From contig CAZGXX010000003.1 of NCBI GenBank assembly GCA_964530085.1, forward strand, positions 210,864-274,863: DNA of 64,000 nucleotides, written 5' to 3'. Of the stretch, positions 3,230 through 43,993 are shown piece by piece. The translations under genes and the position numbers were made by a program. This stretch comes from an uncultured Azospirillum sp. GTDB taxonomy: Bacteria > Pseudomonadota > Alphaproteobacteria > Rickettsiales > UBA3002. Below the pieces are notes generated by a model, which worked only from the letters and a program-made list of their open reading frames with translations, made no database searches and was not told the DNA's origin. Every line of letters begins with the position of its first letter. The stretch's first letter is position 1.

Positions 3230-3273
3230 TCTATACCACCCTTTATCCGCCTTGTTTGTGACAGTTTCGTGAA
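3230..3273 (-). promoter_or_regulatory. module-A promoter: TTCACgaaacTGTCAC, 22 nt, TATAGA
   Basis: Read on the minus strand, the half-sites are at 3273-3269 and 3262-3258 (11-bp period). The -10 TATAGA is at 3235-3230. It mirrors the box at 3300-3315. Confidence 0.65.
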
Positions 3274-3299
3274 GATTTGATGTCTAAAAGCTAAAAATC

Positions 3300-3342
3300 T
3301 TCACAAAACTGTCATATTTAGAGTGGTATCCGCTGTTATAAT
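3300..3342 (+). promoter_or_regulatory. module-A promoter: TTCACaaaacTGTCAT, 21 nt, extended -10 TGTTATAAT
   Basis: Half-sites at 3300-3304 and 3311-3315. A perfect TATAAT lies at 3337-3342 with TGT just upstream. The ATG of the downstream gene is at 3371. Confidence 0.7.
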
Positions 3343-3370
3343 GCGCTGAGATGCAACCTCAGGGAAGAAC

Positions 3371-3958
3371 ATGCAGCCAGACTCCTTTAAACCCGATATC
3401 GATCAATGCCGCATTGCCATACTTTATGTTTTAGATGCGAAGGGTATTACTCAAACTGACTTAGCAAGTCTGACACAAATTTCGTCGTCTAAAATCAGCA
3501 AATTTTTGACATATGGTATCGGCTTAAAGGAAAATGAGATATTACAGATCGCCAACGCACTGGATGCGGCGAACTTTAGCGAACTCTGTCAATTAGGCGA
3601 AAAAGCCGCGCAAGAAAATTCATACGACAGGCGTCGTTTTGGCGAAGCAGTAAGAAACATAATGCATGAGAAAAATATAGGGCAAGACGCACTGGCCATC
3701 CGTGCTGATGTGAATCGTGGCAATCTGTGGTCACACATAAATAAGGTAGATGGACCATTTTTATCATCAGCTAACGCACATAAAGTATCAAAAGCTCTAG
3801 GGGCAAAAAGTCTAAGGGAGCTCTACAAAATGGGTGGAGTGCCCCCTGCTGGACCCGATAACGGCATCAACAACATTTTAGGTAGCATTCTTAACCTGCC
3901 GATTCGTAATTTAGGAACTGTGACACTCGATAACTCGGTTAATCGGGATCTTATATAA
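3371..3958 (+). CDS. orphan protein with two tandem HTH (XRE-like) repeats
   Basis: Two similar segments: KGITQTDLASLTQISSSKISKFL...ILQIANALDAANFSELCQLG and KNIGQDALAIRADVNRGNLWSHINK...AHKVSKALGAKSLRELYKMG. RBS AGGGAAG. AT-rich. Confidence 0.6.
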   Translation: MQPDSFKPDIDQCRIAILYVLDAKGITQTDLASLTQISSSKISKFLTYGIGLKENEILQIANALDAANFSELCQLGEKAAQENSYDRRRFGEAVRNIMHEKNIGQDALAIRADVNRGNLWSHINKVDGPFLSSANAHKVSKALGAKSLRELYKMGGVPPAGPDNGINNILGSILNLPIRNLGTVTLDNSVNRDLI

Positions 3959-5072
3959 TTACTTCTCTACACTCCCCTTCACCCGGGCAGCGAGGCTGGC
4001 GCTCACGAACATATCGAGGTCGCCGTCGAGCACGCCCTGCGTATCACTGGTCTCAGCGTTGGTACGCAGGTCTTTTACCATCTGATAGGGGTGTAGCACA
4101 TAGCTACGGATCTGGTTGCCCCAGCTATTGTCGCTCTTCTGCGCGTTGAGGGTATCCGCCGCTTCGCCGCGCTTGCGCAGTTCCAACTCATAGAGCCGTG
4201 CACGTAGCATGTTATACGCCTCAGCGCGGTTCTGATGCTGGCTGCGCCCGGCCTGGCATTTCACCACAATACCGCTCGGCAGGTGGGTGATGCGTACGGC
4301 GGATTCGGTCTTGTTCACATGCTGACCGCCCGCGCCGCCGGAGCGCATCGTTTCAATATTCAAATCTTTCTCGTTGATGTCGATGCTGATTGACTCGTCA
4401 ATCACCGGATAGACCCACGCGCTGGCGAAACTGGTGTGGCGGCGCGCGTTGGAGTCAAACGGCGAGATGCGCACAAGGCGATGCACGCCGGATTCGGTCT
4501 TCGCCCAGCCATAGGCATTGTGGCCAGAGAGGCGGATAGTGGCGGATTTAATCCCCGCCTCGTCACCCGCCTGTTCGTCGATGATTTCGGTTTTAAATCC
4601 GCGCCGTTCGCCCCAGCGTAGATACATACGAAACAGCATGAACGCCCAGTCCTGACTCTCCGTGCCGCCCGCGCCCGGGTGAATCTCGATGAAGCAGTCA
4701 TTGCCGTCCGCCTCGCCAGAGAGCAGCGCTTCCAGTTCCATCGTGCCGATTTCTTTGACGAGCGCCTCAAGCGTCGCCTGTGCTTCGGCCATCATAGCTG
4801 CGTCGCCCTCACCCTCGGCCAGTTCGTGCAGTTCCAACCCGTCCTTGAAGCGCGTGGTGATGCGGTCAAAACTGGTGATGAGGTTCTCTACCCGCGTGCG
4901 CTCACGCAGAATTTTCTGTGCCTCCGCCTGATTGCTCCACAGCTCCGGGTCTTCCGCCCGTGCGTTCAGTTCCACCAACTGTTTCACCAACTGGTCGTAG
5001 TCAAAGACACCTCGCAAGCAGCCGTTGGCTGCCTTCGAATTGGTCTTTGAGTGTAATAATTTCCGCGCGCAT
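3959..5072 (-). CDS. prfB: peptide chain release factor 2, with programmed +1 frameshift
   Basis: ATG at 5072 opens MRAEIITLKDQFEGSQRLLARCL, followed by an in-frame TGA (5003-5001) in the context AGGTGT CTT TGA C. The +1 frame continues DYDQLVKQ... through GGQHVNKTESAVRITH (GGQ motif). Confidence 0.93.
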
Positions 5073-5079
5073 ATAACTC

Positions 5080-5170
5080 GTGAATAGTGAATAGTGAATA
5101 GTGAGTAGTGGAGGACAAGAAAAAGTCATCTTTTTTCTTCACCACTCACCATTCACTATTCACCACGCAC
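5080..5170. repeat. inverted pair of 4-unit heptanucleotide arrays forming a long hairpin
   Basis: Left arm 5080-5111 is GTGAATA x3 + GTGAGTA + GTGG. Right arm 5140-5170 is CACCACT CACCATT CACTATT CACCACG CAC. The loop contains AGAAAAAG-tcat-CTTTTTTCT. The structure lies between the mrcA stop and the prfB ATG. Confidence 0.85.
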
Positions 5171-43498: not shown

Positions 43499-43553
43499 CT
43501 TCATCTCCCTTTGTTTATTGTAATTTATACTCGCCATTCATGACTTGGGGACG

Positions 43554-43597
43554 GTTATAGCAAACTGCCGCGGGTCTGTGTGTGAAGGTTTTGTGAC
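43554..43597 (-). promoter_or_regulatory. module-A promoter: TTGTCACAAAACCTTCACACACAG, 22 nt after the box, TATAAC
   Basis: On the minus strand the half-sites are at 43597-43593 and 43586-43582. The -10 TGCTATAAC has its hexamer at 43559-43554. The 24 nt from TTGTCAC to CACAG are identical to the 34346-34369 copy. Confidence 0.7.
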
Positions 43598-43638
43598 AAT
43601 TACATGCTGCGGCGCCCCCTAAAGAAGCATTATCCCAT

Positions 43639-43676
43639 AAAAAACCTCTGCGAGCGACGGCTGGCAGAGGTTTTTC
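43639..43676 (-). terminator. rho-independent (bidirectional) terminator
   Basis: AAAAACCTCTGC-gagcgacggctg-GCAGAGGTTTTT, 19 nt after the stop of 43695-43913. Confidence 0.8.
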
Positions 43677-43694
43677 AACACTTCCTCAGAATGT

Positions 43695-43913
43695 TTAGGA
43701 TGGCAACGGCGCTGCCCCATTCTGGCTTTGCTCCCGCTTGCGGGCACGCTCATCCTGCACGCTTCGTTGCCACGCTTTGTTGCTGGCATTGAATTCATCT
43801 ACCGAAATCTGGTGGCTCTCGTGGCGATGCGCCGTATGTAGCTGACGATTCACCTCTGGGGCTTTGGCTTTCAAGGACGCCTCAATTAACTTCTCTTTGT
43901 AATTCCCTGTCAC
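43695..43913 (-). CDS. orphan small basic protein (72 aa)
   Basis: GTG start at 43913 with RBS GGAAGAGGG 5 nt upstream. It has its own module-A promoter and terminator. No family recognised. Confidence 0.6.
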   Translation of the reverse strand: MTGNYKEKLIEASLKAKAPEVNRQLHTAHRHESHQISVDEFNASNKAWQRSVQDERARKREQSQNGAAPLPS

Positions 43914-43949
43914 TGTGACCCTCTTCCTATTGGTTACGAAACTGAATTC

Positions 43950-43993
43950 ACCCTAATGCAAAACCAGCGCCTTTTGTGTGAAGGTTTTGTGAC
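43950..43993 (-). promoter_or_regulatory. module-A promoter: TTGTCACAAAACCTTCACACAAAA, 22 nt after the box, TAGGGT
   Basis: On the minus strand the half-sites are at 43993-43989 and 43982-43978. The -10 candidate TAGGGT is at 43955-43950. Confidence 0.62.

Follow-up and report, generated by a model that had tools for sequence, protein, structure and literature searches.

A Pho-box-like direct repeat at fixed distances from -10 elements precedes lineage-specific genes in a deep-branching Rickettsiales-like clade

Nine copies of a direct repeat of the form KTCAY-N6-KTCAY, here called the box, lie upstream of genes in the window (the whole 64,000-nucleotide stretch of DNA analysed here). The box is a promoter module rather than a product of chance, because 49 of 72 boxes, drawn from many related genomes, keep a fixed distance to the -10 element. 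Its sequence is Pho-box-like, but its main spacing and the content of the genes behind it differ from those of the canonical Pho regulon. The motif, its enrichment, geometry and cross-genome conservation were observed directly, as was the kind of gene that lies downstream. We interpret the box, with moderate confidence, as an OmpR/PhoB-family activator site at promoters that would have no -35 hexamer, controlling a lineage-specific regulon.

The first-pass annotation had reported nine sites, and a search with the pattern KTCAYNNNNNNKTCAY recovered exactly nine, with every coordinate and strand in agreement. The expected number in the window was 1.32 (sd 1.14), and nine or more copies were reached in none of 100 shuffles. 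Conservation exceeds the 16-mer and takes the form A-T-T/C-[KTCAY]-AAAAC-[YKTCAY]-A, with the consensus ATT-GTCAC-AAAAC-CTTCAC-A. With a 26-nt PWM, the nine sites scored 31-40 and everything else scored 18 or less. All nine boxes are intergenic, as against 10.7% of the window being intergenic (P about 2e-9), and all are co-directional with a gene whose start lies 32-90 nt downstream.

Two of the boxes stand back-to-back with 26 nt between their cores. The first, TTCACGAAACTGTCAC (3258..3273, minus strand), is followed after 22 nt by TGgTATAGA (-10 at 3235-3230) and has as its target the orphan gene 2835-3197 (120 aa, without Pfam family); the second, TTCACAAAACTGTCAT (3300..3315, plus strand), is followed after 21 nt by TGtTATAAT (-10 at 3337-3342) and reads towards the tandem-HTH gene 3371-3958. 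The product of the latter gene carries an HTH_26 domain and a second HTH at residues 87-146, and is a singleton with no homologue among 5.8 billion proteins. Also on the plus strand, GTCATAAAACTGTCAC (24941..24956) stands 22 nt before TATTCT (24979-24984) and precedes gene 24991-25506, which encodes a Gly/Ala-rich membrane-hairpin protein; since the ATG at 24991 is merely 6 nt past the -10, this mRNA may be leaderless. The sequence GTCACAAAACCTTCAC occurs three times, always on the minus strand and always with a 22-nt spacing. At 34351..34366 it precedes TGtTACTAT (-10 at 34328-34323) and gene 33726-34286 (family 1, a glycine-zipper membrane protein of 186 aa), together with which gene 33010-33711 is probably driven. 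At 43582..43597 it precedes TGcTATAAC (-10 at 43559-43554) and gene 42740-43537 (265 aa, hydrophilic, with internal repeats), and at 43978..43993 it precedes TAGGGT (43955-43950) and the small gene 43695-43913 (72 aa), a unit separated from the next box by a hairpin and T-run at about 43670-43639. The minus-strand box GTCACAAAAACTTCAC (35541..35556), followed after 22 nt by TGcTATAGT (-10 at 35518-35513), has genes 34958-35497 (family 2) and 34371-34955 as its targets.

The other two sites belong to a three-box cluster of alternating orientation. Here GTCATCAAACTGTCAC (13596..13611, minus strand) is followed after 10 nt by TACGTT (13585-13580) and precedes the orphan gene 12238-13506 (422 aa, no family match), and a TATAAT is located 49 nt downstream of this box. 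The middle member, GTCATAAAACTGTCAT (13624..13639, plus strand), is the best Pho-box match and has a candidate -10, TAAAGA, 10 nt on; the third, GACAAAAAACTGTCAT (13655..13670, minus strand), is a weaker box-like sequence (PWM score 10.8), co-directional with gene 12238-13506. As TAAAGA is a poor -10, assignment of the middle box to the M48/TPR protease gene 13671/13728-15080, whose BepA-like product combines Peptidase_M48 with TPR, is doubtful, and whether its target is this gene or gene 12238-13506 is uncertain. The -10 spacings first proposed were right at seven sites (21-22 nt), but the two "10-nt" sites are members of this cluster.

The predicted enrichment of TAnnnT hexamers at particular spacings was borne out. 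Among 72 boxes, of which the search seeds are biased because the clade loci were collected via the box itself, the hexamer was found at 22 nt in 42, at 21 nt in 7 and at 10 nt in 6, as compared to 0-4 boxes at most other offsets and 7 at offset 17. In 24 of the 42 boxes of the 22-nt class, TG occurs one base before the hexamer, giving an extended -10. The bias is absent only from the secondary boxes and the family-2 alignment: 21 of the 27 boxes outside the search seeds show a spacing of 22, 21 or 10 nt, and the family-2 promoters of six genomes show conservation in the box and in TATAGT but not in the spacer or the flanks. A canonical sigma-70 scan revealed no -35/-10 pair at the box promoters. 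Since the 16-mer of the 22-nt class ends 22 nt before the -10, it would span about -50 to -35, abutting the would-be position of sigma region 4. In the minor class the gap to the -10 is 10 nt, as in classical Pho boxes, and a second box frequently lies upstream of the first; divergent genes would be driven by back-to-back box pairs 26-28 nt apart. Transcription would start about 7 nt after TAnnnT. On the basis of its position, the box would activate rather than repress transcription.

A search of GTDB for the exact 18-mer TTGTCACAAAACCTTCAC gave 67 loci, where database size would by our own estimate predict roughly 17. About 37 of the 67 come from MAGs that bear a Rickettsiales or Alphaproteobacteria label, a single MAG having as many as 5, and the carriers include UBA6189 and UBA6149, both Mitibacteraceae MAGs. 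MAGs in which the box is conserved range from 44 to 61% GC. No description of the motif was found in the papers mentioning Mitibacteraceae. Two box-driven families are syntenic and conserved throughout the clade, so that the box genes are not simply recent AT-rich imports. Box genes are variably present between close relatives.

A Pfam match was obtained for only 5 of the 67 proteins downstream of boxes (9 window genes and 58 clade proteins); among the remaining window genes, 33 of 47 gave one (p=1e-12). Box-driven proteins are short, and internal hydrophobic segments are present in 25 of 52 of them as against 9 of 45 (p=0.005). Their identity to the closest MAG is 54-65%, while that of neighbouring proteins is 88-99.5%. 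The earlier description of the window genes as family-less and low in GC held in part. Seven of the nine have no Pfam or NCBIfam family, but one has an HTH only and another encodes a BepA-like M48 protease; mean GC is 0.52 as compared to 0.57 for other genes (p=0.02), although four of the nine are at 0.57-0.59. The low-GC orphan genes 19082, 55916 and 59335 carry no box. Among the few box genes whose products show a known domain are those for a BepA-like protease, a curlin-repeat protein and a prepilin-type protein. Many of the box proteins have internal hydrophobic hairpins and, as judged by eye for those of the window, no evident N-terminal signal peptide, which suggests that they may be envelope-inserted or exported.

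The first-pass annotation had assigned the sites to the OmpR/PhoB family of response regulators, and both the 11-bp direct-repeat design and the Pho-box-like sequence agree with this. The repeat is direct, with two half-sites and an 11-bp period, as is general for sites of this family. A head-to-tail dimer of a winged-helix OmpR/PhoB-family response regulator would bind the box, and the promoters would use an extended -10 (TGnTAnnnT) in place of a -35 hexamer. The regulon would be specific to a deep-branching Rickettsiales-like clade (Mitibacteraceae and relatives) and would consist nearly entirely of short, fast-evolving proteins without known domains. We infer that a member of the OmpR/PhoB family binds the box, and judging from the sequence a PhoB-like protein is the most likely candidate. 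With a validated search query, no OmpR-family gene was detected in the window or in the GTDB loci; the only response regulators located in the window and about 1.2 Mb of loci are CtrA and NtrX-like proteins, which are likewise the sole regulators found in the metagenome loci. Mitibacteraceae do carry OmpR-family regulators, namely one "OmpR" and one or two "KdpE"-annotated families, the latter occurring without the Kdp pump (PMC9352585, Supplementary Data 4).

A narrower form of the OmpR/PhoB-family interpretation, fixing both regulator and signal, is that of an expanded true Pho regulon, in which a PhoB orthologue would bind the boxes under phosphate limitation and the targets would be phosphate-starvation proteins. 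We regard this as possible, though not probable. By definition the Pho box consists of two 11-nt units, in each of which 7 positions are conserved and 4 are less so (PMC4415409). The window boxes show the 11-bp half-site period, an A-rich 4-nt linker and a CTGTCAT-like core; TGTCA is found in each of them, and the match to the E. coli Pho box at 17 of 18 positions noticed earlier for 24939-24956 and 13622-13639 held on reading the sequence. In the E. coli pstS promoter the Pho box replaces or overlaps the -35, leaving about 10 nt between its end and the -10. This spacing is seen in 6 of 72 boxes, some having tandem upstream boxes like pstS promoters, but 49 of 72 end 21-22 nt before TAnnnT. 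Three Mitibacteraceae MAGs possess pstSCAB and phoU, whereas pstS and phoU are missing from the listing of two others. The same 18-mer is conserved before a PAP2 phosphatase gene in four Alcanivorax genomes, and in marine picocyanobacteria phosphate-starvation genes of unknown function are held in variable islands, both in keeping with a Pho regulon. However, there is no pst, pho, ugp or phn gene among the 67 window and clade targets; the sole pstS behind such boxes (locus L108) is on an unrelated low-GC, curli-bearing contig, and neither phoB nor phoR was seen in the window or loci.

A different OmpR-family envelope regulator, either CenR-like or an orphan "KdpE/KdpD-like" system of basal Rickettsiales, seems to us an unlikely reader of the box. 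Such a regulon would remodel the cell envelope when the cell switches lifestyle or meets osmotic or envelope stress. In Rhodobacter sphaeroides, CenR sites are T[C/G]AC-N7-T[G/C]AC direct repeats (e.g. TCACGCAATCGTGAC and TGGCAAAAATGTCAC). They are co-directional and sit immediately upstream of the -35, and hypothetical envelope proteins make up about 42% of the targets (PMC9275681). This placement equals that of the 22-nt class, and the enrichment of membrane segments and the BepA-like, curlin-repeat and prepilin-type proteins among the box genes also speak for such a regulator. The TCA-N8-TCA core and its placement parallel the TGA-N8-TGA of CenR, but this core is common to Pho boxes as well and the flanks differ, the box resembling the Pho box more closely than it does the GC-rich CenR sites. 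Moreover, CenK/CenR homologues are reported missing from Rickettsiales, tol-pal, surA, dsb and rpoH are without a box here, and none of the conserved CenR targets (tolQ, surA, rpoH, cenR) is behind a box among the 67 downstream genes.

By analogy with PmrA, the box might define a regulon of rvh T4SS substrates (effectors or toxins) in basal, possibly free-living Rickettsiales, switched by an OmpR/PhoB-type regulator and possibly by low phosphate, a proposal that we hold to be doubtful. It is compatible with either regulator identity, PhoB or CenR/KdpE-like, and the likeness to effector regulons pointed out in the first-pass annotation is in itself plausible. The lineage has an rvh T4SS and no recognisable effectors (PMC9352585; PMC11077975), the box genes are family-less, fast-evolving, variably present and, by eye, without evident Sec signal peptides, and on one related contig a box lies 22 nt from TACAAT before an ankyrin-repeat protein. 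On the other hand, the C-terminal 20 residues do not differ in net charge from those of controls, no T4SS gene was seen to adjoin or follow a box, two of the box-driven families belong to the conserved, syntenic core of the clade, and many box proteins resemble the bacterium's own integral membrane proteins.

A role of the box as operator, whether for a repressor or for another protein that is not a response regulator, for example the tandem-HTH protein of 3371-3958, appears quite improbable. This gene is within a divergent box pair and encodes two Cro/C1-type HTH domains, which could contact two major grooves in succession, and extended -10 promoters can fire without an activator. However, the homologue-free status of this protein is at odds with a box conserved over the 44-61% GC range of MAGs, and activators are typically found at positions such as this, -50 to -35 and upstream of the core promoter. 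A dispersed repeat, a mobile or phage-derived promoter cassette or a chance cluster without shared regulation is hardly credible, for although three window copies are identical across about 27 nt, flanks beyond the box have a mere 29-30% ungapped identity, the downstream genes contain no PHROG families, orthologous promoters retain the box while the spacer diverges, and shuffling never yielded nine sites.

Mitibacteraceae and their relatives are the deepest Rickettsiales branches and are known from metagenomes only, and the box-driven proteins may hint at how these little-known bacteria interact with their surroundings. As the module, with its strict geometry, picks out a coherent lineage-specific and mostly membrane-targeted set, it provides a sequence-only handle on a major adaptive programme. 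It yields a list of candidate genes, a predicted regulator class and co-expression testable in lake and ocean metatranscriptomes. If the box genes do encode effectors, a motif scan would give the first Mitibacteraceae effector catalogue, with which bacterial versus eukaryotic targeting by the ancestral system could be tested.

Among known systems, the Pho box of PhoB in E. coli, Sinorhizobium and other proteobacteria shares with our box the (C/T)TGTCA(C/T) core, the 11-bp units and the A-rich linker; in both the box appears to substitute for a missing -35, and a minority of the boxes here are 10 nt from the -10, some of them in tandem. In contrast, the main class here is 22 nt from the -10, an upstream shift of 12 bp or about one turn, CTTCAC frequently forms the second half-site, and the targets are lineage-specific proteins with no function assigned. 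A Pho-box-type site shifted by one helical turn upstream has apparently been re-used for a large regulon unrelated to phosphate. The CenR regulon of Rhodobacter and Caulobacter (PMC9275681) is alike in its 11-bp period, its TCAC/TGAC core, co-directional sites at the -35 edge and many hypothetical envelope-protein targets, but its sites are GC-rich and degenerate, unlike the box. The CreB cre-tag TTCAC-N6-TTCAC has the TTCAC half-site and N6 in common with it; each window site has at least one GTCA(C/T) half, and with TTCAC in both halves at 0 of 9 sites, none is a cre-tag as had been suggested. In the PmrA regulon of Legionella and Coxiella, a tandem-repeat site of an OmpR-family regulator stands at a fixed distance from the -10 before dozens of scattered, family-less, fast-evolving genes, and this motif served to find Dot/Icm effectors. 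The arrangement seen here, a fixed-distance repeat of OmpR-family type before family-less genes among housekeeping genes, may be likened to it, although the PmrA repeat is of the TTAAT type, which the box is not (GTCAC/TTCAC), and belongs to Gammaproteobacteria with a type IVB T4SS. The PIP box of HrpX and the hrpII box of HrpB in Xanthomonas and Ralstonia have repeats 15-16 nt apart, recognised by AraC-type activators of type III secretion, and resemble our module as direct-repeat boxes at a fixed distance from a -10-like element, there defining a secretion-associated regulon.

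A pattern search of the window for the direct repeat KTCAY-N6-KTCAY (16-mer core, hereafter the KTCAY box) returned exactly the nine sites, on the same strands, that the first-pass annotation had reported. The chance expectation was 1.32, and nine copies were reached in no dinucleotide-preserving shuffle of the window. Similarity among the window boxes extended beyond the 16-mer, reading A-T-T/C-[G/T]TCA[C/T]-AAAAC-[C/T][G/T]TCA[C/T]-A in gene orientation. A position weight matrix (PWM) built from the nine sites scored them at 31-40, while the next best position in the window scored 18; a weak match upstream of rne (9121-9146) had no -10 element at the right distance and is probably no site. 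Intergenic DNA makes up 10.7% of the window and contained all nine boxes, each 32-90 nt upstream of the start codon of the gene it faced. Ungapped identity of the flanks outside the box was 29-30%; the flanks are thus unrelated, and the boxes are not a dispersed repeat. The box at 13624 forms part of a three-box cluster and the gene assigned to it is uncertain. A reading of some copies as the CreB cre-tag did not hold, TTCAC being present in both halves at none of the nine sites.

The genes of the window encode MnmA, RF2, PBP1A, AmiC, RNase E, split PurL/PurQ/PurC, RpsD, CysRS, GluRS, NadE, EtfAB, transketolase, GAPDH, LigA, RecN and BamD, with many family-less ORFs interspersed among them. 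The exact MnmA sequence matched on two short metagenome contigs only. Stretches of GTDB species genomes containing the exact 18-mer TTGTCACAAAACCTTCAC numbered 67, as compared to roughly 17 expected by our own estimate from the collection size. About 37 of the 67 came from MAGs whose label was Rickettsiales, Alphaproteobacteria or, wrongly, Azospirillum, and a single MAG had as many as five matches. MAGs that carry the box include JBIIEL01, CAZZCK01, CAZUOS01, JANNSK01, DAIPJH01, JBJXEM01 and 'Ca. Mitibacter marchionensis'. Two of the box-bearing MAGs, UBA6189 and UBA6149, are 'Candidatus Mitibacteraceae', described as the deepest branch of Rickettsiales, with a GC content of up to 58-61%. A 'Rickettsiales bacterium' MAG from Lake Mendota (locus L056) was syntenic with the window over 28.8-39.5 kb, and its housekeeping proteins were 88-99.5% identical to those of the window. 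Since Mitibacteraceae MAGs carry the 18-mer and L056 shows this synteny and identity, the window belongs to a Mitibacteraceae-like bacterium. The box defines a regulon of uncharacterised proteins, and the lineage concerned is important for understanding the origin of host association.

A degenerate scan of metagenomes gave mostly chance matches in AT-rich contigs, and the promoter geometry described below was present in only 24 of its 120 loci; one locus (L108), from an unrelated, curli-bearing organism, had pstS behind a four-repeat Pho array. Four Alcanivorax genomes (L023, L028, L052 and L067) also had the identical 18-mer conserved in front of a PAP2-family phosphatase gene, and five genomes of Rhodobacterales (roseobacters; L033, L046, L059, L064 and L068) had it conserved in front of an aldo-keto reductase gene. 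Both sets probably represent true regulator sites of unrelated lineages.

Five to seven other MAGs had orthologues of two box genes, 33726-34286 (family 1, box 34351) and 34958-35497 (family 2, box 35541), at the same location, flanked by rpsD and a SpoU methylase gene. Among the family-2 promoters, none of which had served as search seed, the box and TATAGT were conserved with constant spacing, whereas the sequences of the 22-nt spacer and of the DNA upstream had completely diverged. On such comparison of sequences, the box is under selection. The box-driven cluster was 54-65% identical to that of L056, as against 88-99.5% for the flanking genes. Gene content also turned over between these very close relatives, the genes 33010-33711 (-) (233 aa) and 35659-36933 (+) (an orphan of 424 aa) having no detectable counterpart in L056.

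We determined the promoter geometry for 72 boxes of the window and clade loci with a PWM score of at least 19. The distance from the 16-mer to the start of a TAnnnT hexamer was 22 nt in 42 of the 72, 21 nt in 7 and 10 nt in 6; other offsets had 0-4 for the most part, with 7 at offset 17. TG occupied the extended -10 position in 24 of the 42 boxes of the 22-nt class. A subset of 27 boxes is free of ascertainment bias, since these were not search seeds, and the 21/22-nt spacing was found in 16 of them and the 10-nt spacing in 5. The spacer begins with ACACAG or similar bases, which do not resemble a -35, and a canonical -35/-10 scan did not pick up the box promoters. Divergent boxes also occurred back to back, with 26-28 nt between cores and each box 21-22 nt from its own -10, at 3258-3315 of the window (boxes 3258 and 3300) and in three clade loci (L025, 120-177; L027, 3569-3627; L029, 2916-2975); these pairs are compact predicted bidirectional promoters. 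For the box at 24941, the predicted -10 TATTCT (24979-24993 region) ends 6 nt before the ATG at 24991, so that either the mRNA would be leaderless or the true start codon lies further downstream.

The box proteins had few recognisable relatives. Seven of the nine in the window had no Pfam or NCBIfam family, one had HTH domains only and one, whose assignment to its box is doubtful, was a BepA-like M48/TPR protease, while 3 of the 58 downstream proteins of the clade loci had a Pfam match (curlin repeat, DUF1150 and a prepilin-type N-terminal motif). Taken together, Pfam matches were obtained for 5 of 67 box proteins, compared to 33 of 47 other window genes (p=1e-12). PDB sequence searches with two box orphans gave nothing significant, and family 1 had four members only among 5.8 billion proteins. 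Orphan, as these genes had been termed, is better put as lineage-specific, and their proposed AT-richness was a tendency only (GC 0.52 for box genes and 0.57 for others, p=0.02). The proteins, mostly putative membrane hairpins, were short (median 208 aa), cysteine-poor and Gly/Ala-rich, they evolve fast, and a strongly hydrophobic segment beyond residue 30 was present in 25 of 52, as compared to 9 of 45 controls (p=0.005). None matched a phage family (PHROG), and on this ground and that of the dissimilar flanks we rejected a mobile or phage-derived cassette as the origin of the box. On metagenome contigs with the same geometry, the few recognisable targets were two proteins of DUF1465 (the family to which RcdA, an adaptor in CtrA proteolysis, belongs), one amine oxidase and one ankyrin-repeat protein. 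The last (226 aa) lies on a contig of 53% GC (L114; 4738-5525 (-), 7409-8991), behind a box 22 nt from TACAAT; the contig also encodes CtrA, a ChpT-like histidine phosphotransferase, an NtrX-like regulator and a LexA-like protein. In the window, the gene 48901-49728 (+) encodes a prepilin-type N-terminal motif (FTLLEMSIVIVIIGLL), with no Pfam match at the threshold used. An upstream box is absent from this gene, whereas the gene of a prepilin-type protein in a related MAG is box-driven.

A second promoter-like module, a CtrA-box-like TTAAC-N6/7-TTAAC(C) followed by a G-run and a -10 (TTAACgaaaaaTTAACCggggggggTATGAT), was found on low-GC orphans devoid of the KTCAY box, upstream of 19082-19588 (element at 19637-19653 (-)) and 59335-59754 (59283-59297 (+)); further elements lie at 24075-24090 and 57236-57250. 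The form TTAA..TTAACC-G8-TAAACT directly follows a KTCAY box in two metagenome loci (L101 and L169), and a looser form does so in L005 and L049. Such arrangements point to composite promoters and perhaps to a regulon of orphan genes of the CtrA type. The window also contains a 6S RNA (52041-52202 (-); Rfam RF00013, 49.7 bits, above the gathering score) in a low-GC stretch adjoining a DUF3592 membrane protein gene, and the programmed +1 frameshift site CTT TGA C of prfB (5000-5006 (-), joining 3959-5017 to the upstream frame). Just upstream of prfB, a short tandem array of three (C)TATTCAC units with a 7-nt period contains TTCAC half-sites, but not at the spacing of the box.

For the regulator, a tblastn search with E. 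coli PhoB (query validated against PDB PhoB chains) gave no match in the window or the 67 GTDB loci, and in the 120 metagenome loci only CtrA (L114), NtrX-like sigma-54 activators and one receiver-domain match (L159). This CtrA gene is 3 kb away from a box, but the sequence that CtrA binds is TTAA-N7-TTAAC. No OmpR-family gene other than CtrA was found in the window or these loci. Obvious candidates for binding the box are regulators annotated in Mitibacteraceae as OmpR, with one family, or KdpE, with one or two regulators beside a KdpD-like kinase and no Kdp pump (Schön et al., Supplementary Data 4, PMC9352585). PhoB is a further candidate, in keeping with the box sequence, the minority of boxes at the canonical 10-nt spacing and the pstSCAB-phoU genes of three Mitibacteraceae MAGs. 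A conventional Pho regulon, however, fits poorly with a main spacing that places the box 12 bp too far upstream, with the lack of phosphate-acquisition genes among the 67 targets, and with two Mitibacteraceae MAGs listed without pstS or phoU. Alternatively, a CenR-like regulator may bind, as Rhodobacter CenR sites share the TCAC/TGAC core and 11-bp period, lie co-directionally immediately before the -35 and have many hypothetical envelope proteins among their targets, although CenKR is reported absent from Rickettsiales. The tandem-HTH protein beside the box pair (3371-3958) cannot be the clade-wide factor, since a search of 5.8 billion proteins gave no homologue of it, whereas the box occurs throughout the clade.

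PmrA controls effector sets in Legionella and Coxiella. The box genes resemble these sets in being motif-defined, family-less, fast-evolving and scattered among housekeeping genes, without evident Sec signal peptides and with one ankyrin-repeat protein. An effector-type regulon linked to secretion nevertheless appears unlikely: C-terminal positive charge, taken as a VirB/D4-type secretion signal, did not differ between box proteins and controls, T4SS genes were not observed in the vicinity of any box, and families 1 and 2 are conserved core genes resembling integral membrane proteins.

Judged by its sequence, the KTCAY box is a real conserved cis-regulatory module, apparently a variant of the OmpR/PhoB-type activator site and, as far as we found, undescribed in the literature. 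Its half-sites are direct repeats 11 bp apart, oriented relative to the promoter, a layout characteristic of OmpR/PhoB-family response regulators that bind as head-to-tail dimers. We infer that a phosphorylated regulator of this family would bind at about -50 to -35 from the predicted transcription start in the main class, and at -38 to -23 in the minor class, and would activate by recruiting RNA polymerase to promoters with an extended -10 and no -35. By definition, a Pho box comprises two 11-nt units in which 7 positions are conserved and 4 less so (PMC4415409). In sequence, the KTCAY box is such a box: its two 11-nt units have 7 conserved and 4 A-rich positions, and two sites match the Pho box at 17 of 18 positions. 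Some relatives (L019, L057 and L062) have, behind a distal box, either a second, proximal box at 10 nt from the -10 or four phased 11-bp units, as classical pstS promoters do.
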